A stretch of DNA of 64,000 nucleotides, from assembly GCA_022820825.1 (NCBI GenBank), contig JAJEEU010000034.1, forward strand, positions 5,030 to 69,029, in the 5' to 3' direction. Each line of letters starts with the position of its first letter. Position 1 is the stretch's first letter. The translations under genes and the position numbers were made by a program. The notes beneath the pieces were generated by a model that was not told where the DNA came from, made no database searches, and saw nothing but the letters and a program-made list of their open reading frames with translations. Origin of the DNA: Vicinamibacteria bacterium. Lineage in GTDB: Bacteria; Acidobacteriota; Vicinamibacteria; Vicinamibacterales; UBA8438. This document shows, piece after piece, positions 188-38,636 of the stretch.

Positions 188-1195
188 ATGCTGTTGCGGG
201 TCGGCCGGCGCGACTTCTTGCGGGCTGCGGCGGTGGCGGCGGCCGGCGCCGGTCTTCGCGCGCAGCCGCGGGAGCACCCGTTCGCGGTCCTCGACCTGAA
301 CCACGTCTCGATCGGCGTGGCCGACGTGCCGCGCTCGCTCGACTTCTATCAGCGCCTCTTCGGCCTCACCGTCTACACGAGCCAGGCCGGCGGTAACCTG
401 CCCATCATGACCATCGGCGCCGGGCCGCAGTTCGTCGCGTTGAGCCCGGCCCGACCCGGACGGCCGCGCGGCGTGGGACACCACTTCAGCGTGCATATCG
501 ACGGCTTCGACCCCGAGCGGGTCACGCGCCAGCTCGCGGAGCTGGGCGTCGAGGCGCGCATCTTTCCGTGGACCTACGAGGGGCGGCGCTACGACCTGCG
601 GCCGGCCGCGGCGCAGCGGCCGGTGGTGGTGGACGCCGCGGACACGCCGGAGCTGGTGTTCGACGACCCGGACGGCGTGCTGCTGCAGATCCAGGATTCC
701 AGCTACTGCGGCGGGGTGGGCGCCCTCGGCGAGCTGTGCGGCATCCCCGCGTCACCCGCGCCAGGCGCGGGCGCGTTCGAGGCGCGCACTCTCAACCACG
801 TGTCGATCCCGGTATCGGACGTGGCGCGTTCGCTGGGGTACTACCGGCGGGTGTTCGGGTTCTCGCACAGGACGTCGCAGGCGCGCGGGGACATCCCGAT
901 CCTGACGGTCGGCGCGGGTCCGCAGTTCGTCGCCCTGCGGGCGGGAGAAGGCGGCGGCCATCACTTCTGCCTGGGCATCGACAACTTCAACCCGGAGCAG
1001 GTGATGGAGACGCTGGCCGAGAACGGCGTGGAAGGCCGCCTCCATGTGCGCCCCGCGGCCGACCAGCGCCCGGCCGCCCCGTCGGGCGCGGCCGATACCC
1101 CGGAGATCACGATTCAGGACCCGGACGGGATCACCGTGCAGATCCAGGACGTCAGGCACTGTGGAGGCGTGGGTGCTCTAGGCGAGATCTGTTAG
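188..1195 (+). CDS. tandem two-domain VOC (glyoxalase/bleomycin-resistance/dioxygenase) family protein with a Tat-type signal
   Basis: Start re-called to MLLRVGRRDFLRAAAVAAAGAGL (twin-arginine motif). Two internal repeats begin LNHVSIGVADVPRSLDFYQRLFG and LNHVSIPVSDVARSLGYYRRVFG, each ending IQDxxxCGGVGALGE. This is the typical VOC beta-alpha-beta-beta-beta signature. Confidence 0.8.
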   Translation: MLLRVGRRDFLRAAAVAAAGAGLRAQPREHPFAVLDLNHVSIGVADVPRSLDFYQRLFGLTVYTSQAGGNLPIMTIGAGPQFVALSPARPGRPRGVGHHFSVHIDGFDPERVTRQLAELGVEARIFPWTYEGRRYDLRPAAAQRPVVVDAADTPELVFDDPDGVLLQIQDSSYCGGVGALGELCGIPASPAPGAGAFEARTLNHVSIPVSDVARSLGYYRRVFGFSHRTSQARGDIPILTVGAGPQFVALRAGEGGGHHFCLGIDNFNPEQVMETLAENGVEGRLHVRPAADQRPAAPSGAADTPEITIQDPDGITVQIQDVRHCGGVGALGEIC

Positions 1196-1319
1196 ATGGG
1201 GCTGCGCCGAATAATTGTTAGATGGGGCTGCGCCCCAAGCCCCCGGCAAGCCCTAGCGGGGACCCCGTAGCCCCGCGCCGGGCTTGCCGAGCCGCGCTGT
1301 GCGCGGCTTGGGAACGGCC
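1190..1319 (+). repeat. structured GC-rich repeat, copy A (full copy about 1216-1319, preceded by a 19-bp partial duplicate at 1190-1208)
   Basis: TGTTAGATGGGGCTGCGCCCCAAGCCCCCGGCAAGCCCTAGCGGGGACCCCGTAGCCCCGCGCCGGGCTTGCCGAGCCGCGCTGTGCGCGGCTTGGGAACGGCC. Homologous copies are at 13985-14090(-), 52786-52885(-) and 54181-54275(+). The same element produces the spurious MGLRPKPPA... ORFs in the track. Confidence 0.85.
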
Positions 1320-1379
1320 GCTTCTATACTCGCCGTCCCCTTTCGTACCGCAGCACTACGCCAGGTGGCACGGCCTGGC

Positions 1380-2735
1380 TCAGACGCCCGAGAGGGCCTC
1401 GAGCGACACGCCGGGGATGCGGCCGGTGCTGTCGCCGAACTGCTCCACCGGCACGTCCAGCTTGTCCAGCATCGAGACGTACAGGTTGGTCAGCGGCGTG
1501 TCCTTCGGCAGCACCAGGTGCCGGTCGCCCTTGACGCGCCCGCCGCCGCCGCCGGCCAGCGCAATCGGCAGCTCGTCGTGCGAGTGCAGGTTCGCGTTGC
1601 CGATGCCGGCGCCGTAGACGATCAGCACGTTGTCGAGCAGGTTGGCGTCGCCGTCCGGCGTGGCGCGCAGCCGCTCCAGGAACTGGGCGAACAGCGACAC
1701 GTGGAATGCGTTGACCCTGGCGACGCTCTCCACTGCCTCGGGGTCGTTGATCAGGTGGCTGATCTGGTGGTGGGCGTCCGACACCCCGATCTCGGGGTAT
1801 GCGCGGACAGTGGTCTCGCGCGTGAACAGGAAGCTGAACACGCGCGTCAGGTCGGCCTGGAACGCCAGCGCCTGCAGCTCGTACAGCAGCCTTGCATGGT
1901 CGGCGAACGCCGGCGGGATGCCGCGCGGCTTCTCGACGAGCGGCAGCTCCCGGTCGCTCTGCTCCTCGGCGCGCTGGATGCGGTGCTCCACGCCGCGCAC
2001 CGCCTCCAGGTATTCGTCCATGCGCCGGCGGTCGCCCGGTCCGAGCGTGCTGTTGAGCCGGCGCGCCTCCGCGTTGACCACGTCCAGGACGCTGCGGTCC
2101 TGCTTGATGCGGGCCAGGCGGGCGTCGCGGTCCGTGGAGTCGCTGCCCCCGAACATCCGCTCGAACACCGCCCGCGGATCGCGCTCCATGGGCAGCGGCG
2201 TGGTGGGGTTGGACCACGAGATCGTGTTCATGTAGGCGCAGCTATAGCCCGAATCGCAGGCGCCCGAAATCTCGTTCGACTCCATGGCGAGCTGCAGCGA
2301 CCCGAGCTGCGTCTCGCGCCCGAGCACGTGCGCCGCGATCTGGTCGACGGTGGTGCCGGAGCGGATGTCGGACCCTTCGGTCTTCTTGATGGGCACGCCG
2401 CTCAGGAAAGTGCCGGCGCCGCGGGAGTGGTCTCCCACGCCTTCCGTTCCCCGGGCGTTGGCCACCAGGTTGGCGAGCCCGCTGAAGACGACCAGCCGGT
2501 CGCGGAACGGCTCCAGCGGCTGCAGCGTCGGCGACAGCGCGAACCCGGGCTCGCTCGTCTCCGGAAAGAAATGCGGCAGGGACATGCCGTTGGGGACGTA
2601 CACCGCGCCGAACCGGCGCACCGTCTGGGGCGAGGCGAACGCCGGCACCATGCCGTCGAGCAGCGGCAGCGCCAGCGAGGCGCCCATGCCGCGCAGCACC
2701 GTGCGCCGCGAGAGCCCGCGTCTTGTGACGATCAT
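1380..2735 (-). CDS. DUF1552 (HxxSHH) family protein, Tat-like signal (triad 1)
   Basis: Start re-called to MIVTRRGLSRRTVLRGMGASLALPLLDGM. It overlaps the upstream stop by 4 nt (ATGA at 2732-2735). It is paralogous over its full length to the CDSs at 12039, 27905 and 36076. The 874-aa track ORF (1380..4004) is an artefactual extension. Confidence 0.85.
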   Translation of the reverse strand: MIVTRRGLSRRTVLRGMGASLALPLLDGMVPAFASPQTVRRFGAVYVPNGMSLPHFFPETSEPGFALSPTLQPLEPFRDRLVVFSGLANLVANARGTEGVGDHSRGAGTFLSGVPIKKTEGSDIRSGTTVDQIAAHVLGRETQLGSLQLAMESNEISGACDSGYSCAYMNTISWSNPTTPLPMERDPRAVFERMFGGSDSTDRDARLARIKQDRSVLDVVNAEARRLNSTLGPGDRRRMDEYLEAVRGVEHRIQRAEEQSDRELPLVEKPRGIPPAFADHARLLYELQALAFQADLTRVFSFLFTRETTVRAYPEIGVSDAHHQISHLINDPEAVESVARVNAFHVSLFAQFLERLRATPDGDANLLDNVLIVYGAGIGNANLHSHDELPIALAGGGGGRVKGDRHLVLPKDTPLTNLYVSMLDKLDVPVEQFGDSTGRIPGVSLEALSGV

Positions 2736-5182
2736 TGAGCGCTCCTCATCCGAAACGGCGGACTGTCCACGATGGCCCCGACCAGCGCCGACCAGCGGTA
2801 GTCGTCCGCGGACGCGCGCCGCATGATCTCGCGCACCGCCGGCTGATCGTAATACTCGAGGCCGCGGCCCAGCGCGTAGGTCAGCAACTTGCGCGTGACT
2901 GTCGCGATGAACAGATCCTGGCGCGCGAGCAACGCCTGCCGCAACTCCACCGGCCCGTCGAACGTCGTGCCGTCGGCCGTGGTGCCGGACGCATCGACCG
3001 GCACCCCGTTGTCGGTCTCGCGCCAGCGGCCGATCGGGTCGAAGTTCTCCAGCGCGAAGCCGAGCGGGTCGATCTTCGCGTGGCAGGTCGCGCACGCAGG
3101 ATTCCGGCGGTGCTGCTCCAGCCGCGCGCGCGTCGACTGCGGCTGGCCGGCGGAGCCGTCCTCTTCCAACGCCGGCACGTCGGGCGGCGGGGGCGGCGGC
3201 GGAGCGCCCAGAATCGACTCGAGCACGAACTTGCCGCGCAGCACGGGCGACGTACGGTTGGCGTACGACGTGGCCGTCAGGATGCTGCCGTGGCCCAGCA
3301 GCCCGGCCCGCCGCCCGTCCGCCAGCTCCACGCGGCGGAAGTGGCTGCCGTACACGCCGGGCACGCCGTAGAAGCGGGCGAGGTGCTCGTTGAGGTACGT
3401 GTACGGCGCGCTCAGCAAATCCACGACGCTGGCATCCTCGCGCACCTGGCTGGCCAGGAACAGCCCGGTCTCGCGGCGGAAGGCATCGCGCAGCTTGTCG
3501 TCGAAAGCCGGGTACAGCTCCGCGTCCGGCTGCAGCCGGCCCAGGTTCCGCAGGTAGAGCCACTGGCCGAAGAAGTTGTCCACCAGCGCGGCGGCGCGCG
3601 GATCCGCCACCATCCGCCCGACCTGCGCTGCGAGGATGTCGGGCTCGGCCAGCTCGCCGCGCTCGGCCAGCGCGAGCAGCTCGTCGTCGGGGATGCTGCT
3701 CCATAGGAAAAACGACAGCCGCGAAGCCAGCTCCAGGCCGTCGATCTCGTAGGCATCTCCCGGGGCAAGACCTTCCGGGTCGCGCTCGACGCGGAAGAGG
3801 AAGTGCGGATTGACGAGCACGGCGGCCACGCCCGCCTGCACGCCGGCCTCGAAATCGGCGCCGGCCGTCCGCCGGTCGCGGTAGGCCGCAAGCAGCGGAT
3901 CGACGTCCGTGGCGGTCACGGACCGGCGGTAGGCGCGCTTGGCCAGCGCCGACAGGATGCTTGCGGCGCAGCGCTCCTCGTCGCTCGCGCCGGCCGGACG
4001 GCAAGTGAAGATCCGCTGGCGGCTCGGGGAATCCCCCACGCCCCTGACGTCGTACGGCCCGCCAATCGTGACCGCGCTGATGGCCGGCAGGCCGCTGGAA
4101 TCGTCGTTGTGGCTGAAGCTGCGCGTCGGCAGCGGCAGCCGCAGACCCTCCGGCGCGCCGCTCTGCCCGGGGAACGTCACGGTCACCGCATGCGGACCGG
4201 CCTCAACCGGCAGGCGGACGAACAACTCCTGATCGAGCTGTTGCGTCGCCTGCAGGCCGCCGCGCCGGTCGATGCCGCCGACGATGTCGGCCGGCCCCAC
4301 CGTGAAGCTCCTGACGAGCCTGCCGTTCAGCCGCACGTCGATCCGGTGCTCATCCTCCACGTCGGCCGCCCGATCACCGAGCCCCTTCAGCCGGCCCGAC
4401 ATGATGGCCCGCTGCAGCTCGATGCGGATGCCGTACTCGGCGTCGACGGGAAAGGTGTGGCGCACGCTGACGCCGCCGCGCGTGCCGAACGGCAGCTCCT
4501 CGCCCATCCGGTCGTCCTGGCGGAAGTTGCGCGATGCGTGGTAGATCACCTCTCCCGCGCCGATGTCGGCGTCGCCAACCGCCAGGCGGCTTATTCGCTG
4601 GGCGGCCGACAGGTAGCGCTCCAGCAGCGGCTGCGAAACCGTCAGCACGTCGCCGATGTTGTCGAAGCCGTAGCTCGCGTCGTCGGCCGGCAGCAGCGCT
4701 CGGCCGTCGATGTCGAGGGCCAGGAGATCGCGGACGGCGTTGGTGTACTCGGCGCGGTTCAGGCGATGCACCGCCGCCGACCGCCCGGGATTCACCCGCT
4801 CGGCCGCCGCCGCGTCCAGGTTCTCCGCGAGCCAGGCGGCGAACCCGGCGTAGGTGGCTTCATCCGGCCGCGGCCGGCCGGCCGGCGGCATCTCGCGCGC
4901 CTGCAGCTTCTGCAGCACCTTCTCCCACAACGGGGCGTCGGCCGCGACGTGCGCGAGATCCGCCTGGTCGAGCGTGAGATTCGCCGTGCGCAGCCGGTCG
5001 TTGTGGCAACCGGCGCAGTAGCGCTCGATGACCGCGCCGTAGTGGTCGGCGGACACGGCCGGGGCGTCCGCCCCGGGCTGGGCGGACACGGCCGCGGCCG
5101 AAACGACGCCGGCCACCGCTACCGCTGCAACCGCCGCGGCGATGCGGCCGGCGCGCCGCCATGGCGGCATCAGGAAAGGCAT
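2732..5182 (-). CDS. DUF1592/DUF1588/DUF1585-type (PSD/PSCyt) di-haem cytochrome c domain protein (triad 1)
   Basis: 816 aa with a signal peptide. N-terminal RYCAGCHNDRLRTANLTLD and C-terminal NPACATCHAKIDPLGFALENFDPIGRWR each carry a CxxCH motif. The poly-Pro linker GAPPPPPPPDVPAL is shared with three paralogs. Confidence 0.85.
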   Translation of the reverse strand: MPFLMPPWRRAGRIAAAVAAVAVAGVVSAAAVSAQPGADAPAVSADHYGAVIERYCAGCHNDRLRTANLTLDQADLAHVAADAPLWEKVLQKLQAREMPPAGRPRPDEATYAGFAAWLAENLDAAAAERVNPGRSAAVHRLNRAEYTNAVRDLLALDIDGRALLPADDASYGFDNIGDVLTVSQPLLERYLSAAQRISRLAVGDADIGAGEVIYHASRNFRQDDRMGEELPFGTRGGVSVRHTFPVDAEYGIRIELQRAIMSGRLKGLGDRAADVEDEHRIDVRLNGRLVRSFTVGPADIVGGIDRRGGLQATQQLDQELFVRLPVEAGPHAVTVTFPGQSGAPEGLRLPLPTRSFSHNDDSSGLPAISAVTIGGPYDVRGVGDSPSRQRIFTCRPAGASDEERCAASILSALAKRAYRRSVTATDVDPLLAAYRDRRTAGADFEAGVQAGVAAVLVNPHFLFRVERDPEGLAPGDAYEIDGLELASRLSFFLWSSIPDDELLALAERGELAEPDILAAQVGRMVADPRAAALVDNFFGQWLYLRNLGRLQPDAELYPAFDDKLRDAFRRETGLFLASQVREDASVVDLLSAPYTYLNEHLARFYGVPGVYGSHFRRVELADGRRAGLLGHGSILTATSYANRTSPVLRGKFVLESILGAPPPPPPPDVPALEEDGSAGQPQSTRARLEQHRRNPACATCHAKIDPLGFALENFDPIGRWRETDNGVPVDASGTTADGTTFDGPVELRQALLARQDLFIATVTRKLLTYALGRGLEYYDQPAVREIMRRASADDYRWSALVGAIVDSPPFRMRSAQ

Positions 5183-6685: not shown

Positions 6686-7777
6686 CTACTCCTCGGCCAG
6701 GTACGGCACGGCCGGCTCGCGGATGCCGGGGTGGCCGGCCTCCTTCCGCTGGCGGGACACCCGCGCGGCCGCCTCCAGCGCCTGCTGCTCGTCGGCGCGG
6801 CCGCCGCTGAGCAGGTTCGGCATGCCGTGGTTCCCCTCGTGGCACGCGTACTCGAAAAGATGGTTGAGCGGGTTGCCGCCGGTGTCGCGCCGCGTCATCG
6901 GGATGGACAGCGTGTACGGCCGCGTATAGATCTCCGGATCCTCGATCGTGAGCTCGTAGTCGATCGAGTTGGCGTCGCGCAGCGTGAACCGCTCCACCAC
7001 GCGCAGCGTGCCGCCGGGTCCGCGGTGCCCCGTCTGAATGATGTGCGACGGCTGGTAGTCGCCGCCGTCCAGCCGGTTGTTGAAGCGCTCGGTCTCGACG
7101 ACGAGCGTATCGCCCTCCCAGCGGCCGCGGCTGTCGCCCAGCCACTGCCGCACGCCGTCGGCGACGTGGGGCCGCCCGTCGAGCGGAATGATGCGCGCTT
7201 CGTGGATCATCTCGATGACGATGGCCACGTAGTCCTGCGTCTGCAGGATCTGGTAGTTCGCGTTGTAGCCATTGGGGATCATCGCGACCGGCATGGTCCG
7301 CGAGATGCAGCGCTCCCAACTGTTGCGGTCGAGCCAGGAATCGGCCTCGCCGCGCCCGTCGCGCGCGTTCTCGCGCTCTATCAGCCGCTGCTTCGCCGCC
7401 GGCAGCAATTCGGGGATCCGCCCGTCCGGCGGGTCGACGATGAGCGATTCCCGGATCATCGTCCCCGACCGCTCGATCCACGCGGCGCCGGTGCCCTGCG
7501 TGGCGGCGATCACGGCCTGCTGCGCGAGCTGGCCGCGCTCCTTCTCCGCTTCGGTCAGGCGCTCCATCGGGGTGTCGGTGGAGTTGTTCCACACGCCGCG
7601 CAGGTCGGGGTCGCCCCACGCGGTGCGCGGCAGCTCGCCGTCCGCGGGCGGCAACAGCCCGTCCAGGCTGGTCGGCGCCCCCGAATACAACCGGTCGCCC
7701 TGCCCCGCCGCGGGCGCGGCGAAGGCGGCGAGCAGGATGATGAACGCCCCGGTGACCGACAGGTATCGATAGCTCAT
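6686..7777 (-). CDS. secreted 'YACHEGN' family protein, paralog 1 of 7 (function unknown)
   Basis: Start at MSYRYLSVTGAFIILLAAFAAPAAG (signal peptide). Family motifs: PRTAWGDPDLRGVW, SLIVDPPDGRIP, ERCI, EMIHEARIIPLDGRP, SRGRWEGDTLVVET, VERFT, FEYACHEGNHG. Confidence 0.8.
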   Translation of the reverse strand: MSYRYLSVTGAFIILLAAFAAPAAGQGDRLYSGAPTSLDGLLPPADGELPRTAWGDPDLRGVWNNSTDTPMERLTEAEKERGQLAQQAVIAATQGTGAAWIERSGTMIRESLIVDPPDGRIPELLPAAKQRLIERENARDGRGEADSWLDRNSWERCISRTMPVAMIPNGYNANYQILQTQDYVAIVIEMIHEARIIPLDGRPHVADGVRQWLGDSRGRWEGDTLVVETERFNNRLDGGDYQPSHIIQTGHRGPGGTLRVVERFTLRDANSIDYELTIEDPEIYTRPYTLSIPMTRRDTGGNPLNHLFEYACHEGNHGMPNLLSGGRADEQQALEAAARVSRQRKEAGHPGIREPAVPYLAEE

Positions 7778-7864
7778 GCAACCCTCCATTGCTCACTGCG
7801 CAATACACCATCCCGCGCGGCCGTTGTCAACCGGCGCGGGCGGTTGCGCGGCGGCTGCCATTGG

Positions 7865-7893
7865 TTGACGACCTCCCGGCGCGCGGGTAGACT
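7865..7893 (+). promoter_or_regulatory. candidate sigma70-like promoter TTGACG-17 nt-TAGACT upstream of the ankyrin gene at 7921
   Basis: Hexamers are at 7865-7870 and 7888-7893 in the 143-bp divergent intergenic region. The -35 overlaps the right arm of the inverted repeat GTCAACC (7826-7832) / GGTTGAC (7863-7869). Promoter rules for this lineage are unknown. Confidence 0.3.
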
Positions 7894-7920
7894 GCGATAT
7901 TCGCTTCTTTCAACCCGAGA

Positions 7921-9570
7921 ATGGCCTCCATGCGCAATCGTGATGCGTTGAGCGGGATTTCCCGTTTCATGCTCCTCGTTCTTGTGCTGGCGACTACGGC
8001 GGTGGGGGCCGGCGCCGCCGACCTGCCGCTCGTCAGCGCCGCCGCGCAGCAGGACTGGCCGCAGGTACGCACGCTGCTGGCGGAAGGCGCCGACGTCAAC
8101 GAACGCCGCGCCGACGGCGTCTCGGCGCTGCTGTGGGCCGCCCACTGGGACCACGTCGAAACGGTCGAGGCGCTGCTCGCGGCGGGCGCGAACCCCAACG
8201 CCGCCACCGACCACGGCGTGACGCCGCTCATGCGGGCGAGCGAGAACGCCAGCGTCGCGGCAGCCGAAGCGCTGCTGGCCGCCGGCGCGGACCCCGACGC
8301 CGCGCAGACCAGCGGGCTCACGGCGCTCATGATCGCCGCCGACACCGGCGACCGCGACGTGGTGCGCGCCCTGCTCGCCAGCGGGGCCAACGTCAACGCG
8401 GTGACGCCGAGCACCGGGGCAACGGCGCTGATGTGGGCCGTGGAGGCGCCGCATCCTGCTGTCGCGCACATCCTCCTGGAGAGCGCGGCCGACGTGAGCG
8501 TGTCGTCGAAGAAAGGTTTCACGCCGCTGCTGCTCGCGGCGCGCAACGGGGACGTCGAGCTGGCGCGGCTGCTGATCGCGGCGGGCGCCGACGTTAACGA
8601 GCCCGGCTCGGACGGCAGCCACGCGCTGCCGCTGGCCATCATCAGCGGCCACGATGCGTTCGCGATGTTCCTGCTGGAGCAGGGCGCCGATCCGCGCGGC
8701 ACGATCGACGGCGTACCCGCGATCCATGCCGCCGCCGGCGATGTCACTACCTGGCTCGTGGACTGGTACCGGGAACACGGCGGACGCCGGGCGGTGGACG
8801 CCGGCGGGCGCGGGATAAGCGGGCTGAGTCCCGCGCGGCGGCTGCCGCTGGTCGAGGCGCTGCTGGCGCGCGGCGCCGACCCCAATGCGCGGATCGACAA
8901 GTCGGCGGTCGTGCTGAGCTACATCGGAACCACGCGCTACGGCGTATTCGAGCAGAACTCGGTCGGCACCGGGGACGTCCGCGGCGCGACGCCGCTCTGG
9001 GTGGCCGCCAAGTCGTCCAACGGCGGCGGCCTGCAGGGAGAGCAGGGCCCGCCCTCGCAGTACCGCTACGACAGCAGCGCGGACATCATCCGCGCGCTCG
9101 TCGCGGCCGGCGCCGACCCGAACCTCACGACGGACGACGGCACGACCCCGCTCATGATGGCGGCCGGGCTGGGCGTGCGGTCGCACCAGCCGCTCATGCC
9201 GCGCGGCAGGCCGTCGCCCCCGGCCGAGGCAGCCGTGCGGGCGCTGGTCGAAGCGGGCGCGGAGGTCAACGCCAGCAACAACGGAGAATTCACGGCGCTG
9301 CACGGCGCCACGTTCCGCGGCCTCAACGAGGTGATTCAGTACCTCGTAGAGCAGGGCGCCGACATCGACGCGCGCGACTACCGCGGCCGCACTGCGTACC
9401 GGATGGCGGAAGGCGCCAAGCAGTCGTTCCAGTACCAGGCGTTTCCCGAAACCGCGGAGTTCCTCGTGCAGCTCGGAGCCAACCCGCGCCTGGGCATACC
9501 GGGAACCATTCACGAGCGCGCGGACCGGGAAGCGCTCGCCGAGACCGTCGGCGGCTCCGACAGCCGCTGA
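7921..9570 (+). CDS. exported ankyrin-repeat protein (triad 2)
   Basis: 549 aa. Hydrophobic signal FMLLVLVLATTAVGAGAA is followed by DLPLVSAAAQQDWPQVRTLLAEGADVNERRADGVSALLWAAHWDHVE and more than 10 ankyrin repeats. Confidence 0.85.
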   Translation: MASMRNRDALSGISRFMLLVLVLATTAVGAGAADLPLVSAAAQQDWPQVRTLLAEGADVNERRADGVSALLWAAHWDHVETVEALLAAGANPNAATDHGVTPLMRASENASVAAAEALLAAGADPDAAQTSGLTALMIAADTGDRDVVRALLASGANVNAVTPSTGATALMWAVEAPHPAVAHILLESAADVSVSSKKGFTPLLLAARNGDVELARLLIAAGADVNEPGSDGSHALPLAIISGHDAFAMFLLEQGADPRGTIDGVPAIHAAAGDVTTWLVDWYREHGGRRAVDAGGRGISGLSPARRLPLVEALLARGADPNARIDKSAVVLSYIGTTRYGVFEQNSVGTGDVRGATPLWVAAKSSNGGGLQGEQGPPSQYRYDSSADIIRALVAAGADPNLTTDDGTTPLMMAAGLGVRSHQPLMPRGRPSPPAEAAVRALVEAGAEVNASNNGEFTALHGATFRGLNEVIQYLVEQGADIDARDYRGRTAYRMAEGAKQSFQYQAFPETAEFLVQLGANPRLGIPGTIHERADREALAETVGGSDSR

Positions 9571-9585
9571 GCCACGGGCCGCCAT

Positions 9586-12009
9586 ATGCCGCCGCGCATC
9601 GCGATCGTCATCGGCGGCACGCTGGCCTTCGTGGCCGGCGCCGCCGCGGAGACCGCCGCCCAGGCGCCCTCGCGCGCGCTCCTCGACCGCTACTGCATCA
9701 CCTGCCACAACGAGCGGCTGCAGACCGCGAACCTGGTGCTGGATCGCGTCGATCTCGACAGGGTCGGCGACCATGCCGAAGCCCTCGAAAAGGTCGTGCG
9801 CAAGCTGCGCGCCGGGCAGATGCCGCCGGAGGGCCGTCCGCGGCCCGCGCGCGAGGATGTCGAGACGTTCGTCGCGGCGCTGGAGACGGCGCTCGATCGC
9901 GAGGCCGCGGGCCGGGTCGCGCCGGGCCGCGTCGCGTCGCGGCGGTTGAACCGGGTCGAGTACGTCAACGCCATCGAGGATCTGCTGGATCTGCAGGTCG
10001 ACGGGAACGAGCTCCTCCCGAGCGACATGGCGGGGTTCGGGTTCGACAACAACGCGGAAGTGCTGGCGATGACGCCGTCGCTCATGGCGCGCTACATCGC
10101 GGCCGCGACGAAGATCAGCCGGATGGCCGTGGGGAGCCCGGACAACAGCCCCGACGGCCGTCTCTATACGCTCGGCTTCGAGCAGCAGGACGAGCGCATG
10201 CACGAGGACATGCCGTTCGGCACCCACGGCGGACTCGCCGCGCGGCACATCTTTCCGCTCGACGGCGAGTACCTCTTCTCGATTCGCATGGAGCGCGGCC
10301 TGGGCGATACCAGCGGCCGTGTCAGGGGCATCGCCGAGGACGCCCACGACATCGAGCTGCGGATCGACCATGCGCTGGTCGAGCGCTGGAGCATCGGTGG
10401 CAGGTTCCCCGGGCAGATACCGGGGCTCGCCATCGCCGACGACGACGTCAGGTCGCTCCGGACCCATGAATACCGCATGACGGCGGACCACGGCATGGAC
10501 ATCCGCCTGCAGGTGGAGGCCGGCCAGCGGCTGGTGAGCGTGGCCTTCACCGATTCGAACCCCTCGCCCGTGGACGGGGTCTACGGCCGGCCGGGGATCT
10601 ACAGCCTGTTCATCGCCGGCCCCTACGACGGGACCGTTCCCGACGAGACGCCGAGCCGCGCGCGGATCTTCATCTGCCGGCCGGCCGGCGCCGCAGCGGA
10701 AGACGAGGCGGACTGCGCGCGCGAGATCCTGGGCACGCTGGCGCGGCGGGCCTACCGGCGGCCGGTGACGGAGCGCGATCTGGACGTCCTGCTGCCGTTC
10801 TACGAGGACGGCCGGCAGGAGCGCGACTTCGAGTACGGGATCGAACGCGGGCTCGAGGCGATACTGTCGATGCCGGAGTTCCTGCTGCGGGCGGAGCGGC
10901 AGCCGGCCGGCGTCGCCGCGGGCGAGCCGTACCGCCTGTCGGACCTGGAGCTGGCCTCCCGCCTCTCGTTCTTCCTGTGGCGCAGCATTCCGGACGACGA
11001 GCTGCTGGATGTCGCCGCGGCGGGCCGGTTGAACGATCCGGACGTGCTCGACCGGCAGGTGCGGCGGATGCTGGCCGATCGGAAGGCCGTCCGCTTCATG
11101 AACGACTTCGTCGGCCAGTGGCTGCAGGTGCGCAACATCAACGAGCAGTCGCCGGACGGCGGCCTGTTCGCGCAGTTCAACGACACGCTCCGCAAGGCCA
11201 TGGTCAGCGAGACGGAGCTGTTCTTCCGGAGCCAGGTGCGCGACGACCGGCCGATCCCCGAGCTGCTGCGGGCCGACTACACCTATCTGAACGCGCAGCT
11301 CGCGGGGCACTACGGCATCGACGGCGTGTACGGCAGCCGCTTCCGCCGCGTCGAGCTCGACGACGACCGGCGCCACGGCCTGCTGGGGCACGCCAGCATC
11401 CTGACCATCACCTCGTATGCGAACCGCACGTCGGTCGTGCTGCGCGGCAAGTGGATGCTGGAGAACATCCTCGGCGCCCCGCCGCCGGCGCCGCCGCCCA
11501 ACGTCCCGCCCCTGGAAGAGAACGACCCCGCCGGCGAGCCGACCTCGCTGCGCGCGAAGATGGAGCAGCACCGCGACAACCCGGTATGCGCGAGCTGCCA
11601 CGCGATGATCGACCCGCTGGGGTTCGCGCTGGAGCACTACGACGCGATCGGCCGCTGGCGCGAGACGGACCGGGGCGCACCCATCAACGCGACGATCGAC
11701 TGGCGCGGGCAGACCATCGACAGTCCGCGCGCCTTTCGCGAAGCGCTGCTGGGCCGGGGCGCCACCTTCGTGGATACGGTCGCCGAGAAGCTGCTTACCT
11801 ATGCGCTGGGGCGCGGCCTGAGCTACCGGGACGCGCCGACAGTCCGGCAGCTCGTGCGCGACATCGCACGGGACGGGCAGCGCTGGTCGTCGCTGATCAA
11901 CGGCATTGTCGCCAGCACGCCGTTCCGGATGCGGCAGGCACCACCTGCCGCCGGGCTCGTCGCCTCCGCGGAGGTTGCGGATTCGGCGCGGCGGAGCGAT
12001 AATCGCTAG
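9586..12009 (+). CDS. DUF1592/DUF1588/DUF1585-type di-haem cytochrome c domain protein (triad 2)
   Basis: 807 aa. RYCITCHNERLQTANLVLD and NPVCASCHAMIDPLGFALEHYDAIGRWR carry the two CxxCH motifs. It is collinear with the paralogs at 2732, 25449 and 36073. Confidence 0.85.
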   Translation: MPPRIAIVIGGTLAFVAGAAAETAAQAPSRALLDRYCITCHNERLQTANLVLDRVDLDRVGDHAEALEKVVRKLRAGQMPPEGRPRPAREDVETFVAALETALDREAAGRVAPGRVASRRLNRVEYVNAIEDLLDLQVDGNELLPSDMAGFGFDNNAEVLAMTPSLMARYIAAATKISRMAVGSPDNSPDGRLYTLGFEQQDERMHEDMPFGTHGGLAARHIFPLDGEYLFSIRMERGLGDTSGRVRGIAEDAHDIELRIDHALVERWSIGGRFPGQIPGLAIADDDVRSLRTHEYRMTADHGMDIRLQVEAGQRLVSVAFTDSNPSPVDGVYGRPGIYSLFIAGPYDGTVPDETPSRARIFICRPAGAAAEDEADCAREILGTLARRAYRRPVTERDLDVLLPFYEDGRQERDFEYGIERGLEAILSMPEFLLRAERQPAGVAAGEPYRLSDLELASRLSFFLWRSIPDDELLDVAAAGRLNDPDVLDRQVRRMLADRKAVRFMNDFVGQWLQVRNINEQSPDGGLFAQFNDTLRKAMVSETELFFRSQVRDDRPIPELLRADYTYLNAQLAGHYGIDGVYGSRFRRVELDDDRRHGLLGHASILTITSYANRTSVVLRGKWMLENILGAPPPAPPPNVPPLEENDPAGEPTSLRAKMEQHRDNPVCASCHAMIDPLGFALEHYDAIGRWRETDRGAPINATIDWRGQTIDSPRAFREALLGRGATFVDTVAEKLLTYALGRGLSYRDAPTVRQLVRDIARDGQRWSSLINGIVASTPFRMRQAPPAAGLVASAEVADSARRSDNR

Positions 12010-12038
12010 TCGACGGTCGCTTGGAGAGGAAGCGCCCC

Positions 12039-13385
12039 ATGTTTATCGCCAGGAAGCACTTGCCGCGGCGCACGGTGTTGAGAGGTTTGGGAACGGCGCT
12101 TGCGCTGCCCTTCCTCGACAGCATGGTGCCGGCCCTGACGGCACTTAGCAAGACCGCGGCCGCCCCGGTGAGACGGTTCGGGGTCTTCTACGTGCCCAAC
12201 GGCATGTCGATGCCGTTCTGGTCGCCCGAGCGCGAGGGCCCGCTCGACGAGCTGCCGCCCATCCTGCGCTCGCTCAACGACCTCAAGGAGCACGTGCTCA
12301 TGTGCGGCGGCCTCGACGACGAGGCGGCCAACATGGTGAAGGGCGGCGGCGACCACTCGCGCTCGGCCGGGACCTTCCTGACCTGCGTGCCGTACAAGCT
12401 CACCGCCGGCGCCGACGTGTACGCCGCGGTGTCGATGGACCAGATCGCGGCGCGCGAGCTCGGCAAGCAGACGCAGTTGACCTCGCTGGAGCTCGGCATC
12501 GAGTCGAACTCGATGCTCGGGTCGTGCGACGGCGGCGCAAGCTGCGCGTACACGAACACGGTGGCCTGGCGCACGCCGACCACGCCGCTGCCGATCGAGA
12601 ACAATCCGCGCGCCGTCTTCGAGCGGCTGTTCGGCGCGAGCGGCACGACCGACCCCGAAGCGCGGCAGGCACGCATGCGCCGGGACCGCAGCCTGCTCGA
12701 CGCGGTAAACGGCGAGCTGAAGCACCTCGGCCTGTCCCTCGGAGCGGGCGACCAGGTCAAGCTGGACGAGTATCTCGAGGCGGTGCGCGACGCCGAGCGC
12801 CGGATCCAGTTGGCGGAACGCCAGAGCGCGACGGAGCTTCCCGTTGTGGACCGGCCGATCGGCACGCCGAGCGATTACGCCGAGCATGCGAAGCTGCTGA
12901 TGGACCTGCTGGCCCTGGCGTATCAGACGGACATGACGCGCATCAGCACCTTCATGCTGGCGCGCGAGGTGAGCTCGCGGGCGTATCCCGAGATCGGCGT
13001 CTCGGATTCGCACCATCCGCTGTCCCACCACCAGGACCGCCCGATCAACCTCCAGCGGCTGGGCGTGCTCAACGAGTACCACTTCCGGCAGTTCGCCCAC
13101 CTCGTCAAGCGGCTTGCGGAGACGCCTGAAGGCGACGGGACGATGCTCGACTCCACGCTGTTCCTGTACGGGACGGGGATCAGCGACAGCAACACCCACT
13201 TCCACGAGGATCTGCCGATTGCCCTGATCGGCGGCAGGTCGACGGGGATCACCGGCGGGCGCTACGTGCGCTATGCGGAGGGCACGCCGCTGGCGAACCT
13301 GCACACGACCGTCCTCGAGATGCTGGGCACACCCGTCGAGAGCTTCGGGGACAGCACCGGCAGACTCAAGCGCCTGTCGGTGTAG
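12039..13385 (+). CDS. DUF1552 (HxxSHH) family protein (triad 2)
   Basis: Start re-called to MFIARKHLPRRTVLRGLGTALALPFLDSM, with GGAGAGGA 8 nt upstream. Motif SDSHHPLSHHQD is present. It is paralogous to the other three DUF1552 genes. Confidence 0.85.
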   Translation: MFIARKHLPRRTVLRGLGTALALPFLDSMVPALTALSKTAAAPVRRFGVFYVPNGMSMPFWSPEREGPLDELPPILRSLNDLKEHVLMCGGLDDEAANMVKGGGDHSRSAGTFLTCVPYKLTAGADVYAAVSMDQIAARELGKQTQLTSLELGIESNSMLGSCDGGASCAYTNTVAWRTPTTPLPIENNPRAVFERLFGASGTTDPEARQARMRRDRSLLDAVNGELKHLGLSLGAGDQVKLDEYLEAVRDAERRIQLAERQSATELPVVDRPIGTPSDYAEHAKLLMDLLALAYQTDMTRISTFMLAREVSSRAYPEIGVSDSHHPLSHHQDRPINLQRLGVLNEYHFRQFAHLVKRLAETPEGDGTMLDSTLFLYGTGISDSNTHFHEDLPIALIGGRSTGITGGRYVRYAEGTPLANLHTTVLEMLGTPVESFGDSTGRLKRLSV

Positions 13386-13397
13386 GGCCGGGACCGG

Positions 13398-13766
13398 TCA
13401 CCTGCACGCCGCGCAGCGGCCAAAGAGAATCAGCTCGTGGCCGTCGACCTCGAAGCCCTCGGGCGCCAGCTCCTTGACTCCATCGGGACACCGCAGGACA
13501 TCGAACGCCTGATCGCAGCAGCGACACAGGAAGTGGTGGTGATGCGGGCGCGCGGCCAACTCGTACCGCAGCCCGCCGCCGGGAAGATCCACTTCCGATA
13601 ACCACCCCTCGCCAGCCAGGGCCTTCACGTTCCGGTAGACGGTCGCCAACCCGAGCGACGGCACGATCCGCTGGCCGTGCTCGAGGACCTCGTCCGGCGT
13701 CAGGGGACGCTCGACGCTCATGAACACGCGGCGGATCGCCGTGCGCTGACGGGTGTCTCGTTGCAT
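13398..13766 (-). CDS. Fur family transcriptional regulator (Fur/Zur/PerR-like)
   Basis: 122 aa. TRQRTAIRRVF...GLATVYRNVKAL forms the winged helix. HHHHFLCRCC and GRCAAC give two CxxC pairs typical of the Fur structural Zn site. Confidence 0.85.
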   Translation of the reverse strand: MQRDTRQRTAIRRVFMSVERPLTPDEVLEHGQRIVPSLGLATVYRNVKALAGEGWLSEVDLPGGGLRYELAARPHHHHFLCRCCDQAFDVLRCPDGVKELAPEGFEVDGHELILFGRCAACR

Positions 13767-13822
13767 TGCGGCGGGCGATCAAGGGACGGTTGCGAGGGAA
13801 TCATTCATGGTGTCGCGTCGAC

Positions 13823-13840
13823 ATGATAATGCATTCTCAT
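13823..13840. promoter_or_regulatory. Fur-box-like imperfect palindrome ATGATAAT-GC-ATTCTCAT
   Basis: It sits in an AT-rich patch between the divergent Fur-family gene (start 13766) and the RND gene (start 14091). There is one mismatch between the arms. It resembles the GATAATGATAATCATTATC-type Fur operator. Confidence 0.5.
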
Positions 13841-13984
13841 GCCAGTGTCACGCCCCCTGCGCCTGGCCCCCGCGGCGACGAATCCGCCATAATGAGAAGT
13901 TACGTCGCGCGGACTGCGCGCGGTATGGCAAGCACGTCTGAACCGCCCTGCCGGTTGCATGTGGAAGGGGACGGTGTGCACCGA

Positions 13985-14090
13985 GCAGCCGTCCCCAGGC
14001 CGCGCACAGCGCGGCCCGGCGGCAGCGGCGCGGGGCTATGGGGTCCCCGCTAGCAGCCGCCGGGGGTTTGGGGCGCAGCCCCATCTAACA
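13985..14090 (-). repeat. structured GC-rich repeat, copy B
   Basis: The reverse complement reads TGTTAGATGGGGCTGCGCCCCAAACCCCCGGCGGCTGCTAGCGGGGACCCCATAGCCCCGCGCCGCTGCCGCCGGGCCGCGCTGTGCGCGGCCTGGGGACGGC. Its terminus CCATCTAACA directly abuts the RND ATG at 14091. Confidence 0.85.
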
Positions 14091-17282
<3,192 letters not shown>

Positions 17283-20033: not shown

Positions 20034-20972
20034 TCAGGGCGCTTCGGCCCGTTCCACCGCGCGGGCGCCGCTGAGCGAGTTCGGCAGGCCGTAATTGCCC
20101 TCGTGGCACGCATACTCGAAGAGGTCGTAGTCCGGGGAGCGGTTGAGCGGCATCGACGCCGTCCAGGGTTGCTCGAACGCGTTCGGATCGCCCACCGTCA
20201 CGTCGTAGCGGATGGTGTCCCGATCGACCCGCGTGAAACGCTCCACGACGCGTAGTGCCTCGCTCTGCGGGATCCCCCGCAGGCGCAGCGTCGTCAGGTT
20301 CGTGCCTACCGTGCCCTTGTCGTTGTAGTTGGCCGTTTCGACGACGAGGGTAGCGCCCTCCCAGCGCCCGCGCGAGCTGCCTTCCCACTGCCGGATGCGT
20401 GCCGGGAGCGCGGCCCGATTGTCACCCAGCGGGATGATGCGCGCCGCGTGAATCATCTCGGACAGGATCACCACGTAGCCGGGGACCTGCAGGATCAGGT
20501 GGCCGGCGTTGTAGGTCGGGAACATGGCGCCCGGCACGCCGCGCGTGATGCAGCGCTCCCACGGAGTGTGGAACAGCCACGAATCGGTCAGGCGCTCGAG
20601 CCGGTCGTCGCGCACCGCGGCCGCCGCCGGCAGAATCGGCAGCCGCCCGTCCGGGGGATCCACGACCATGGAGCGCCGCACGGCGCTCGGCGCGGCCGCC
20701 ACCTCGCCGCTGAAGTCCGGCGATGGATTCGGTCCCGTGATGCCTCCACCGGAACGGTTGATGCCCGGAAACCAGAGAGCCAGGGCATCGAGATCCCGCC
20801 ACGCTTCAACGCTCGCTGCCTCGAGCGGCGTGCGGTCGAAGTTGGTCCAGACTCCCTGGATGTCCGGCTGGCCATCGGGCGTGCGGGCCGGTGACGGCTG
20901 CTGCGCACCGGCCGCCAACGCCGTTGCGAGGATCGCGGTCGCGATGGCCGGCGCCGCGAGGTAACGCCTCAC
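20034..20972 (-). CDS. secreted 'YACHEGN' family protein, paralog 3 of 7
   Basis: GTG start at 20972 (VRRYLAAPAIATAILATALAAGA); an alternative ATG is at 21011. Motifs: PDGQPDIQGVW, SMVVDPPDGRLP, ERCI, EMIHAARIIPL, SRGRWEGATLVVET, FEYACHEGNYG. Confidence 0.8.
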   Translation of the reverse strand: MRRYLAAPAIATAILATALAAGAQQPSPARTPDGQPDIQGVWTNFDRTPLEAASVEAWRDLDALALWFPGINRSGGGITGPNPSPDFSGEVAAAPSAVRRSMVVDPPDGRLPILPAAAAVRDDRLERLTDSWLFHTPWERCITRGVPGAMFPTYNAGHLILQVPGYVVILSEMIHAARIIPLGDNRAALPARIRQWEGSSRGRWEGATLVVETANYNDKGTVGTNLTTLRLRGIPQSEALRVVERFTRVDRDTIRYDVTVGDPNAFEQPWTASMPLNRSPDYDLFEYACHEGNYGLPNSLSGARAVERAEAP

Positions 20973-21000
20973 ACGGCCGCCCGCCGCGGCGGGGCCGCTG

Positions 21001-24383: not shown

Positions 24384-24395
24384 GGTTTTCTCCTC

Positions 24396-29239: not shown

Positions 29240-29264
29240 GCGGCGCGGCAGCACGGAGACCCGA

Positions 29265-38628: not shown

Positions 38629-38636
38629 CGGCTGCT

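Follow-up and report, generated by a model that had tools for sequence, protein, structure and literature searches.

The window, namely the whole 64 kb stretch of DNA analysed here, carries exactly four copies (A to D) of a GC-rich unit made of several hairpins. They were recovered at 104-118 bits in a scan with a covariance model that was trained on 106 copies of the family, while the best other matches reached at most 19 bits and are either the reverse strands of the same four copies or noise. The initial annotation had already placed the four copies at these positions and on these strands. In addition, GGGGCTGCGCCCCAA has 4 exact matches in the window against 0.43 expected and GCGGGGACCCCRTWGCCCCGC has 4 matches against 0.04 expected, and in neither case did any shuffle reach 4. 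Minimum free energy (MFE) folding gives the same architecture for all four copies, with z-scores from -3.5 to -5.8.

Upstream of copy A, the stop codon (TAG, 1193-1195) of a glyoxalase-family gene (125-1195) falls inside a separate, internally deleted unit at 1190-1208; on the other side, a minus-strand DUF1552 gene ends at 1380, beyond the tail of the copy. Copy B lies antisense in the 5' untranslated region (5' UTR) of an RND pump gene (14091-17282), the ATG of which (14091-14093) is found within the leader of the copy with no Shine-Dalgarno (SD) sequence left, and the product of this gene is 81-82% identical to Vicinamibacterales proteins. Contigs of three sibling samples, all short-read assemblies, end inside copy B. 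Copy C sits between tandem GSDH paralogues and supplies the last 13 residues and the stop codon (52846-52848) of GSDH1 (52846-54123). Thus the view that all copies are intergenic or at gene ends needs one correction, as copy C is not purely intergenic and has 13 codons of a GSDH gene inside it. The homology between GSDH1 and GSDH2 breaks off exactly at the start of the leader, and this paralogue comparison shows that the leader belongs to what was inserted. On the other side of GSDH1 (start 54123), copy D occupies the spacer that separates it from a divergently transcribed NHL-repeat gene (start 54372).

Table 1. Positions of the four copies and of their parts in the 64 kb window
Feature	Position	Strand	Sequence or parts	Basis or remark
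Internally deleted unit	1190..1208	+	TGTTAGATGGGGCTGCGCC	leader TGTTAGAT + GGGGCTGCGCC
Copy A	1210-1365	+		covariance-model match
Copy A leader	1210..1223	+	AATAATTGTTAGAT	family alignments
Copy A H1	1223..1237	+	T-GGGGC TGC GCCCC-A	MFE fold, RNAalifold
Copy A H2, 5' arm	1244..1253	+	CGGCAAGCCC	family covariation
Copy A H3	1256..1276	+	GCGGGG-ACCCCGTAG-CCCCGC	family alignment
Copy A H2, 3' arm	1280..1289	+	GGGCTTGCCG	MFE fold
Copy A H4	1291..1307	+	GCCGCGC-TGT-GCGCGGC	family covariation, RNAalifold
Copy A H5	1310..1340	+	GGGAACGGC...GCCGTCCCC	MFE fold, compensatory variants
Copy A 3' tail	1341..1365	+	family consensus YYCCNNNTTCAACCG..	weakly conserved
Copy B	13947-14096	-	leader 14096-14083, H1 14083-14069, H4 to 13999	complete
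Copy B, 3' part		-	H5 13996-13967, tail 13966-13947	
Copy C	52744-52892	-	leader 52892-52879, H1 52879-52865, H4 to 52795	complete
Copy C, 3' part		-	H5 52793-52764, tail to 52744	
Copy D	54168-54309	+	leader (TACTT type) 54168-54181, H1 54181-54195	complete
Copy D, 3' part		+	H4 54249-54265 (one mismatch), H5 54268-54288, tail to 54309	

Architecture of the unit

Reading from the 5' end, the unit consists of a leader of 12-14 nt ending in TYAGAY, a hairpin H1, a long-range stem H2 which encloses a hairpin H3, a hairpin H4, and optional 3' modules which are specific to subfamilies. For the window-type subfamily the 3' module is a further hairpin H5 (GGGGACGG..CCGTCCCC) followed by a tail of about 20 nt. 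Across the family the unit measures 115-170 nt (at least 114 nt) and has 4-5 hairpins. In the window it is about 140-155 nt long rather than about 100 nt as originally estimated, the difference being the 5' leader together with H5 and the tail, and H5 was absent from that earlier description.

The leader has the family consensus GCTTCAATCAGAC or ..TTAGAT, that is, a TYAGAY tag adjoining H1; it reads ATCAGAC in the dominant subfamily and GTTAGAT in the window type, and in most copies its reverse complement is GTCTGA or ATCTAA. The final base of the leader pairs with the base directly after H1, and this closing pair of H1 covaries across the family, being C-G in 69 copies and U-A in 30. Unpaired CCCC(C) motifs, located between H1 and H2 and in the loop of H3, are nearly invariant, while the three bases preceding the final G of the H3 loop are hypervariable; more generally, the linkers and loops between the stems are conserved or hypervariable position by position in the family alignment. 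Pairs 2 and 4 of H4 covary between GC and CG, and the 3' hairpin said to be shared by all four copies is indeed present in each of them, with a C-T mismatch in copy D. H5 carries GGGGACAG in copy D and GGGGACGG or GGGGACCC in the other copies. An alternative coding view, based on the ATG at the start of H1 in TAGAT-type copies, was rejected, for the main subfamily reads CAGAC-GGGG and has no ATG there.

Compensatory change and conservation of the fold

The H2 arms quoted for the four copies in the initial annotation are correct: all 10 pairs form in copy A (CGGCAAGCCC/GGGCTTGCCG), 9 of 10 in copies B and D (CGGCGGCTGC/GCTGCCGCCG, with a T-T mismatch) and 9 of 10 in copy C (CGGCCAGCGC/GCGCTTGCCG), and four pairs are swapped on both arms between A and B/D just as had been noted. 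Family-wide, double changes occur in 7 of the 10 pairs of H2, and at least 8 different H2 haplotypes are perfectly complementary. H5 shows the same behaviour within its subfamily, with the compensatory variants CGG/CCG, CGA/TCG, CAG/CTG and GGGAAC/GTTCCC.

A test on 106 copies from many genomes supports the claim that the fold is conserved through compensatory change. Double changes were found in 10 of 30 pairs and amounted to 121 cells against 38 in shuffles, a value which none of 500 shuffles reached, with the reservation that copies inside one subfamily are not independent of each other in these counts. Paired cells made up 91% in the real structure and 34-56% in controls with slid partners, and H1, H2, H3 and H4 were recovered independently by RNAalifold. 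The invariance of H1 and of the 5' half of H3 is partly by construction, because the pattern used to retrieve the loci fixed both; the extra copies found by the covariance model brought only changes in the loops and one compensatory change in H1. H2 is only 77% paired overall because about half of the copies, those of the commonest subfamily, leave three positions unpaired there, forming a 3x3 internal loop, and therefore the H2 stem is not universally required. As for the strand, the reverse complement folds equally well or better than the forward strand. C-A mismatches exceed G-U pairs, but this excess is traced to two or three shared variants and therefore does not mark one strand as RNA.

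Distribution, arrays and orientation of the family

The family is abundant in at least 19 metagenome-assembled genomes (MAGs) of Vicinamibacterales, from which more than 136 copies were retrieved. A sequence-pattern search gave more than 114 matching stretches, nearly all of them in MAGs of Vicinamibacterales or Vicinamibacteraceae, and the covariance model found 136 matches in 100 of the loci retrieved by the pattern; the two non-acidobacterial pattern matches were not confirmed by the model. Complete chromosomes rich in the element include OY760136.1, OZ253664.1, OY762226.1 and CBDCCO010000007.1. The distribution is patchy: the element was not detected in most other related Vicinamibacterales genomes sampled, and among 80 loci (627 kb) selected for an RND gene copies occur at a single one, L119, which has three. 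A scan of viral contigs gave 0 matches. At L119 the element constitutes the whole 111 nt spacer upstream of the RND gene, whereas the orthologous spacers at four other loci with the same upstream gene are 40-70 nt long, contain an SD sequence and have no element. Two comparisons speak for insertion polymorphism, one at this cross-species locus and one between paralogues, the latter being that of the GSDH genes.

Of 127 sites, 114 hold a single unit and 13 hold head-to-tail arrays with a period of about 95 nt and a fixed junction; tail-to-tail pairs are few and were seen at two loci. Truncated units are common, and remnants of internal deletion include, besides the one at 1190-1208 of the window, H1/H4-junction remnants (GGGGCTGCGC joined to GGC..) ahead of full copies at five loci. 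The flanks of different copies are unrelated to each other.

With respect to the neighbouring genes, the orientation is close to random, the 5' neighbour being co-oriented in 43 cases and opposed in 39. Convergent and co-directional spacers are favoured: 21 spacers are convergent and 6 divergent, and 8 sense plus 18 antisense copies are in co-directional ones. The gene ends facing the element are 99 3' ends and 62 5' ends. The distance to H1 is 2-28 nt for stop codons and 5-12 nt for start codons. Reverse-complemented, the leader contains TGA or TAA in 85% of copies against 15% in the background, and GGAAG or GAAGC in 35% of copies. TAG is not significantly enriched where the element begins on its 5' side (p = 0.058), because TAG accounts for 44% of stops in these genomes.

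Searches for transposition marks, a mobilising enzyme and known families

Neither terminal inverted repeats (TIRs) nor target site duplications (TSDs) were found. In local alignment, the 5' end scored 5.84 +/- 1.1 against the reverse-complemented 3' region, with shuffles at 5.96 +/- 1.2. The longest word common to both flanks follows the distribution of permuted pairs, except in arrays and in a single 12 nt case (locus L106).

No RAYT/TIRYT homologue was found when E. coli RayT and 10 RAYT/TIRYT sequences were compared by tblastn with the window and 194 loci, together 1.5 Mb, a sample in which a single-copy gene would rarely be included. All-against-all clustering of 598 open reading frames (ORFs) near the copies revealed no recurrent transposase-like gene family, and the clusters obtained are ordinary paralogue families, e.g. 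glyoxalase and DUF1552/1592. A genome scan seeded with four aligned acidobacterial TIRYTs returned 80 loci of Terriglobia and none of Vicinamibacterales. The IS110 bridge RNA, the TnpB/IscB omega-RNA and the retron ncRNA were considered as identities and rejected, as no cognate protein gene adjoins any copy.

No Rfam 15 family, Acido-1, Acido-Lenti-1 and sX13 included, matches the 64 kb window at its gathering threshold, in agreement with the earlier remark that the element was not recognised as a known Rfam family; the best matches below threshold, both on copy A, scored 16.7 and 16.1 bits where 100 and 50 are required. No account of the element turned up in the literature searched. Among short motifs of known repeat systems, GTAG is present only in the hypervariable H3 loop of copy A, CGTC only within H2 of one subfamily, and GGGGWSAS fits only H5 of copy D (GGGGACAG).

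Relation to known interspersed repeats

In behaviour the family resembles the REP/BIME/REPIN elements of Proteobacteria, which are moved by RAYT, an IS200-like HUH tyrosine transposase. Those elements too are high-copy, GC-rich and extragenic, occur in both orientations and as arrays or mosaics, consist of palindromes kept by compensatory change with a conserved short tag 5' of the hairpin, are enriched at gene 3' ends and in convergent spacers, and have no TIRs or TSDs. They differ in that a REP is a single palindrome of 20-40 nt, while the unit described here has 115-170 nt, 4-5 different hairpins and a long-range stem; the REP tag is GTAG or CGTC instead of TYAGAY; REPs form inverted doublets or alternating clusters whereas head-to-tail arrays prevail here and inverted doublets are rare; and REPs have a cognate RAYT, of which none was seen in the 1.5 Mb searched. 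ERIC/IRU elements of Enterobacteria resemble the family in size (about 127 nt), in their imperfect palindromes, in lying in transcribed intergenic regions in either orientation, in having no known transposase, in their internally deleted or expanded variants and in being confined to certain lineages; however, there is no sequence relationship, and ERIC is one long imperfect palindrome rather than a set of independent hairpins plus a nested one. The BOX elements of Streptococcus pneumoniae (boxA-boxB(n)-boxC) likewise have a conserved 5' module, a tandem-repeatable unit, alternative 3' modules, stable predicted folds, an intergenic location and no known mobilisation mechanism, but they belong to an unrelated AT-rich organism and have another sequence and module structure. 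Correia elements (CREE/NEMIS) and other bacterial miniature inverted-repeat transposable elements (MITEs) are alike in size, copy number, insertion at gene boundaries and the ability to alter gene ends and expression signals, while Correia elements have TIRs of 26 nt and a TA target duplication, neither of which occurs in the Vicinamibacterales repeat.

Within the phylum itself there is a precedent: Acidobacteria have genes for RAYT-like transposases, the TIRYTs, with which repeat families are associated (Di Nocera et al. 2013, PMC3733652). The TIR repeats described there are thought to be propagated by these RAYT-like tyrosine transposases, and some are self-complementary and arranged in dimers or clusters; they come from Terriglobia, not from Vicinamibacteria, and they flank a TIRYT gene and carry the GGGGWSAS motif (PMC3733652). 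For the present family, no TIRYT gene was found in the 1.5 Mb searched.

Discussion

The best explanation, to which we assign a probability of roughly 0.7, is that the family is a new, lineage-restricted, non-coding interspersed repeat of Vicinamibacterales (Acidobacteriota) belonging to the class of REP/BIME, ERIC and BOX. The family is previously undescribed. Copies of the unit have reached many gene boundaries that are not related to one another, and they point either way. Often the entire spacer has given way to the element, in some cases together with the first or last codons of a gene. The units decay by internal deletion, and their stems stay complementary through double changes on both strands. 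From the three identities initially proposed, the REP/BIME-like repeat is the one favoured, while the lack of TIRs and TSDs excludes a classical MITE, and a strand-specific sRNA gene is unlikely because of the occurrence in both orientations, the arrays and the truncated forms.

As for propagation, the unit was probably copied as a folded single strand. A trans-acting enzyme encoded elsewhere would recognise and copy the folded single DNA strand, with H1 and its 5' TYAGAY tag in the role which GTAG and a hairpin play for the RAYT/IS200-type HUH tyrosine transposases. The inserted hairpins, which are predicted to be very stable, would then end up in 5' or 3' UTRs or between cistrons, and may passively block exonucleases, read-through or ribosomes by analogy with the REPs of E. 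coli; REPs that lie no more than about 15 nt from a stop codon reportedly affect the upstream gene. The four invariant tracts of C4-5 (G4-5 on the other strand) could conceivably form an i-motif or a G-quadruplex. It is improbable, though worth stating, that the element is structure-recognised mobile DNA of a new type, i.e. a TYAGAY-tagged hairpin with no TIR or TSD and with an enzyme not linked to any repeat family. In that case it would insert directly against start and stop codons and supply the signals of a gene boundary itself, namely stable hairpins, a stop codon and, in antisense, a TGA with an SD-like GGAAG behind it, and would act as a portable intercistronic junction replacing native spacers, including ribosome-binding sites, while the neighbour genes are not killed.

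Some of these properties would also suit a module selected by the host at gene boundaries and not a selfish repeat, serving for bidirectional termination or as mRNA-stabilising hairpins and, in antisense, offering a stop codon and an SD-like GGAAG beside the start codon of the neighbour. The excess of convergent and the depletion of divergent spacers, the tight spacing of stops and starts from H1, the frequent stop and GGAAG/GAAGC words in the reversed leader, and the replacement of a native SD-containing spacer in front of an intact-looking RND gene, both in the window and at L119, are all in line with it. Yet no hairpin of copies A-D has the T-run behind it that would make it a canonical intrinsic terminator; most related genomes sampled have no detected element and the orthologous genes manage without one; arrayed and truncated copies are not expected; purifying selection against promoter insertions gives the same spacer bias; and the TAG enrichment falls short of significance, so that we consider such a module unlikely. 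A strand-specific structured RNA, either a multi-copy sRNA whose unpaired C-rich motifs would pair with G-rich ribosome-binding sites or a cis-regulatory leader, is very unlikely. The fold is very stable, conserved and covarying, the unpaired CCCC(C) motifs hardly vary, and there is a weak likeness (16 bits) to sX13, an sRNA with three hairpins and C-rich loops. This match is nevertheless far under the gathering score of 50 with no other Rfam match beside it, the orientation to neighbour genes is near random, copies lie flush with or inside coding ends, in tandem arrays and in many truncated forms, the reverse strand folds no worse, and, after correction for shared ancestry, wobble pairs and A-C mismatches do not clearly set one strand apart from the other.

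A further alternative concerns why the stems covary and not what the element is. Templated repair or strand-switching occurs in DNA palindromes and copies one arm from the other, and such correction of quasi-palindromes can produce compensatory change without selection on RNA. Every stem of the unit is a DNA palindrome, pairing is kept equally on both strands, and the 3x3 internal loop tolerated by the dominant subfamily implies that perfect pairing is not essential. On the other hand, five separate helices stay paired, among them a 10 bp stem with arms 26 nt apart which encloses another hairpin; this, the variety of perfect H2 haplotypes and the position-specific pattern of loops and linkers therefore indicate a constraint on the folded form, and we regard a purely mutational by-product as quite unlikely. 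There remain a classical MITE, in the sense of an IS reduced by deletion and moved via its TIRs, and an integron attC site, a pair of readings that is already largely refuted and scarcely credible. Size, copy number and intergenic location would fit the former, and the leader GTTAGAT of the window type fits the GTTRRRY of attC while some tails (ATTCAAC) fit RYYYAAC. However, the ends show no more inverted similarity than shuffles do (5.8 +/- 1.1 and 6.0 +/- 1.2), and direct repeats in the flanks are no longer than in permuted controls, bar the 12 nt case; the attC heptamers are in the wrong order, with GTTRRRY at the 5' end, and belong to the window-type subfamily only, as the dominant subfamily has ATCAGAC in this place; and the copies are scattered in both orientations with no unidirectional cassette array.

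Vicinamibacterales are abundant and rarely cultured soil bacteria, the non-coding DNA of which was not described before. In some of their genomes the present family, read as an interspersed repeat, makes up whole intergenic spacers, and it rewrites gene ends, as in the window both the C-terminus of a GSDH dehydrogenase and the region around the start codon of an RND pump gene are derived from it. It also breaks short-read assemblies, as seen at copy B, and the covariance model lets annotators mask spurious ORFs and flag contig ends induced by the repeat. For those who hunt RNA motifs there is a warning in it, since strong covariation here belongs to a DNA repeat and not to a riboswitch or an sRNA. 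Finally, the spread of interspersed hairpin repeats beyond the Proteobacteria, whether through RAYT-like enzymes or through other movers, has a clean test case in this family.

Copies in the window and anatomy of the family

The initial annotation had reported four copies of about 100 nt in the window, which is a metagenome scaffold (ENA ERZ23491296, KELL22-1 series) with a G+C content of 70%. All four were found where it had placed them, and its stem sequences and pairing counts were correct. For both the 15 nt motif of the 5' hairpin and the 21 nt motif of the central hairpin, exactly four occurrences were counted in the window, versus 0.43 and 0.04 expected respectively, and this number was reached in no shuffle. 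R1, a covariance model of the element built from 106 family members, scores copies A-D at 104-118 bits and, with filters off, gives no further match above 19 bits in the 64 kb window. The unit length had been given too short: alignment of the copies and their flanks extends the unit on the 5' side by a leader of 12-14 nt ending in TTAGAT (in copy D, TACTT in its place), and on the 3' side by a fifth hairpin GGGGACGG...CCGTCCCC whose interior varies, followed by a weakly conserved tail (..TTCAACCG..). The short stretch ahead of copy A, covered by the coordinates that had been given for the repeat, is a separate unit with an internal deletion from the TGCGC of H1 to the TGCGC of H4, and such remnants stand before full copies in several other genomes. 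Single-sequence folding gives one five-hairpin architecture in all four copies (z-scores -3.5 to -5.8); folds of the complementary strand are equally good or better.

Coordinates of the repeat copies and other features in the window
Feature	Position (strand)	Context or description
Copy A	1210-1365(+)	with the remnant fills a convergent spacer, glyoxalase-family gene (stop 1195) / DUF1552 gene (stop 1380)
Remnant	1190-1208	internally deleted unit
C4-5 tracts, example copy	1233-1244, 1263-1266, 1271-1274	G tracts on the other strand
Copy B	13947-14096(-)	antisense, between Fur-family gene and RND pump; flush with pump ATG, which lies inside the leader
Fur/RND region	13398-14093	Fur-family regulator gene divergent from RND efflux pump gene
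AT-rich palindromic boxes	~13824, ~13890	TGATAATGCATTCTCA, ATAATGAGAAGTTAC; Fur/RND spacer
Copy C	52744-52892(-)	between two tandem GSDH paralogues
GSDH tandem duplication	51406-54123(-)	PQQ-type glucose/sorbosone dehydrogenase gene; 88% DNA identity
Copy D	54168-54309(+)	divergent spacer
Six paralogous genes	6686-7792(-), 20034-21026(-), 23394-24395(-), ~31700-32340, 48571-49752(-), 49652-50731(-)	~330-390 aa
Two-gene unit, four copies	1380-5182(-), 9571-13385(+), 25380-~29100(+), ~34860-38802(-)	both orientations
Large ankyrin-repeat proteins	7891-9570(+), 29232-30770(+), 33319-34830(-)	third inferred from repeat similarity

In the family as a whole, the common core consists of a leader (GCTTCAATCAGAC in the main subfamily; ..GTTAGAT, ..TACTT or ..CCTC elsewhere), H1 (GGGGC-TGC-GCCCC), a conserved linker A/G-A-CCCCC, the 10 bp long-range stem H2, which encloses H3 (GCGGGG-ACCCC-NNN-G-CCCCGC, with NNN hypervariable), and finally H4 (GGCGCGC-YGT-GCGCGCC). 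What follows 3' of H4 depends on the subfamily, namely nothing, a hairpin GGAGTCTGC..GCAGACTCC, or H5 with the tail as in the window. Head-to-tail arrays have a period of about 95 nt (for example loci L087, L090, L094 and L062) or 116 nt (L035), with a constant junction at which the following leader overlaps the last two bases of H4. Many units are truncated or internally deleted. Terminal inverted repeats were sought by comparing the 5' end with the reverse complement of the 3' region, which scores as shuffled controls do, and no target-site duplication was found save one 12 nt case, the only one resembling it among 130 copies. In this case (L106, ~540-690) the copy lies between perfect direct repeats TTAGGCGGACGC that include the stop codon of the upstream gene.

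Each unit carries four nearly invariant C4-5 tracts, in the 3' arm of H1, the linker, the loop of H3 and the 3' arm of H3; judged from their spacing, an i-motif or a G-quadruplex with a long central loop could in principle form. A second short repeat, ~CCTAGCAGCCYGTGGCAASAGCCCCGCTGCATTCGACC, adjoins copies at L009, L058 and L070 in two different genomes, which suggests that these spacers are mosaics containing further repeat families.

Among the other features of the window, the six paralogues share 60-85% DNA identity in blocks, and the five scanned have no Pfam match at 1e-5. The two-gene unit encodes a DUF1552 (HXXSHH) protein and a DUF1592/1588/1585/1587/1595 'PSD' cytochrome-domain protein. 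The ankyrin-repeat genes contain 99 nt periodic DNA repeats, and their abundance is unusual for a bacterial stretch of 64 kb.

Covariation of the stems

Pairs were counted in 106 distinct copies with a specified structure. The proposal that the fold is kept by compensatory change was supported: both-sided changes occur in 10 of 30 pairs, comprising 121 cells versus 38 +/- 4 in shuffled alignments (0 of 500 shuffles reach the observed value), where cells are not independent events because the copies have common ancestry. The proportion of paired cells is 91%, and falls to 34-56% in a control with the 3' partners slid by 1-3 columns. The ascertainment pattern fixes H1 and the 5' arm of H3 but leaves the pair closing H1 free; 69 copies have C-G there and 30 have U-A. 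In H4, GC<->CG swaps occur at one position in 21 copies and at another in 7, and RNAalifold adds a further A-U/G-C/G-U pair to the base of this hairpin. Seven pairs of H2 covary, and its different haplotypes with perfect complementarity number at least eight, including AAGCCC/GGGCTT, AAGCGC/GCGCTT, AGGCCC/GGGCCT, GGCCAC/GTGGCC, GGCCGC/GCGGCC, GACCGC/GCGGTC, GGGCGC/GCGCCC and GGTTGC/GCAACC. Nevertheless, H2 is only 77% paired overall, because its three middle positions are unpaired in the subfamily CGGCGTCCGC/GCTCCCGCCG, which makes up about half of the copies. Variants of H5 are CGG/CCG, CGA/TCG, CAG/CTG and GGGAAC/GTTCCC. The 28 extra copies contributed by the covariance model differ mostly in loops, with one compensatory change in H1 (GGGGT/ACCCC, L070).

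Distribution among genomes

A degenerate pattern (H1, then 10-34 nt, then the 5' half of H3) matched at least 114 stretches in a species-representative genome collection, and among the matches listed nearly all come from Vicinamibacterales, Vicinamibacteraceae or unclassified Acidobacteria MAGs; at least 19 assemblies were counted in the first 80 loci. R1 confirmed 136 copies in 100 of the pattern loci, and gave no confirmation for matches in one proteobacterial and one actinomycete MAG. The RND pump of the window is 81-82% identical to Vicinamibacterales MAG proteins, and in an independent sample selected solely for encoding a relative of this pump (80 loci, 627 kb, about 60 genomes) three copies were found in the locus L119 and none in the others. 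The distribution across genomes is thus patchy. A viral contig collection contained zero copies. In line with the initial annotation, which had not recognised a known Rfam family, Rfam searches gave no matching family, and the element was described in none of the texts found by searching for the motifs or for repeats of this lineage.

Gene context and insertion

Neighbouring genes were compared at 127 sites in other genomes. Those 5' of the element run in its direction in 43 cases and against it in 39; on the 3' side the element is faced by a gene end 56 times and by a gene start 23 times. Convergent spacers number 21 versus 6 divergent ones, and in co-directional spacers the element is antisense 18 times and sense 8 times. 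Co-oriented upstream genes have their stop codon ending 2-28 nt 5' of H1 in about 30 cases; opposed genes have the start codon 5-12 nt from H1 in several cases, or right after a native Shine-Dalgarno (SD) sequence abutting the leader. This pattern is that expected of a repeat landing in short spacers and purged from promoters, rather than of a gene with its own strand.

Insertion is supported by three lines of evidence, from the GSDH paralogues, the spacer in L119 and contig ends in sibling samples. Homology between the two GSDH genes stops at ..ATCGAGC, beyond which GSDH2 has six codons and then a stop. GSDH1, the upstream copy, runs on through the leader and H1 to a TAG between H2 and H3; therefore its last 13 residues are encoded by the element, SLDGAAPQAPGQR replacing the native C-terminus VEEQAQ. 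Copy B occupies the whole 5' UTR of the RND pump up to the ATG, with no SD sequence left 5' of it, and lies downstream of the AT-rich boxes, which in sequence look like Fur-type operators. L119 repeats this arrangement at a different RND gene: its 111 nt spacer is almost all antisense element, except for five bases by the upstream stop. Four further genomes have these two genes with spacers 40-70 nt long, with SD present and the element absent. In three sibling samples, contigs with the identical Fur protein end inside copy B, at H2, H5 and the tail, as expected if that genome contains many repeats of this sequence. In sibling sample ERZ23491334 (L278) the gene for the identical Fur protein has different DNA upstream, with the divergence 14 nt ahead of its start codon, which indicates that the locus has been rearranged or that the sample series includes a second strain.

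Discussion

The element is a dispersed, lineage-restricted, non-coding repeat with hairpins maintained on both strands. Its copies have spread to gene boundaries unrelated to one another, its arrays join units at a fixed junction, and it is degraded by deletions. In view of the orientations, the arrays, the truncations and the missing Rfam match, it is unlikely to be a strand-specific sRNA or leader. A module selected by the host at gene boundaries is possible as a secondary role, but as the primary explanation it is opposed by the decay products and by the relatives sampled, in most of which the element was undetected. Some of the double changes could also arise without selection by templated quasi-palindrome correction, which leaves the identity of the element unchanged. 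An integron attC site and a classical MITE both fail the defining tests, the latter because the element has neither TIR nor TSD.

As to the spread of this repeat, we infer that a trans-acting enzyme would recognise the unit as a folded single strand. A TYAGAY tag lies 5' of H1, and its final base pairs with the one 3' of H1; hairpin and tag together may be the analogue of the GTAG-hairpin of RAYT/IS200-type HUH transposases. RAYT-like TIRYT enzymes are encoded in Acidobacteria and associated with repeat families (PMC3733652). No RAYT/TIRYT-type gene was found in 1.5 Mb of Vicinamibacterales sequence, none of the ORF families neighbouring copies is transposase-like, and a TIRYT-seeded genome scan returned Terriglobia only. 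At the RNA level, by analogy with REPs, the element may plausibly protect from exonucleases, attenuate read-through and interfere with ribosomes where a stop or start codon is near; the hairpins are not canonical intrinsic terminators because a T-run follows none of them.

The element works like REP/BIME, ERIC and BOX elements. It differs from REP/REPIN sequences in being too long and multi-hairpinned, without the GTAG or CGTC tag and without inverted doublets. It fits best as a new family among the interspersed hairpin repeats of bacteria, a broad and well-known class, and is the first such family found for Vicinamibacteria within the literature searched. Although not surprising in kind, it is useful for annotation and assembly, and is a reasonable choice for studying how such repeats are mobilised.
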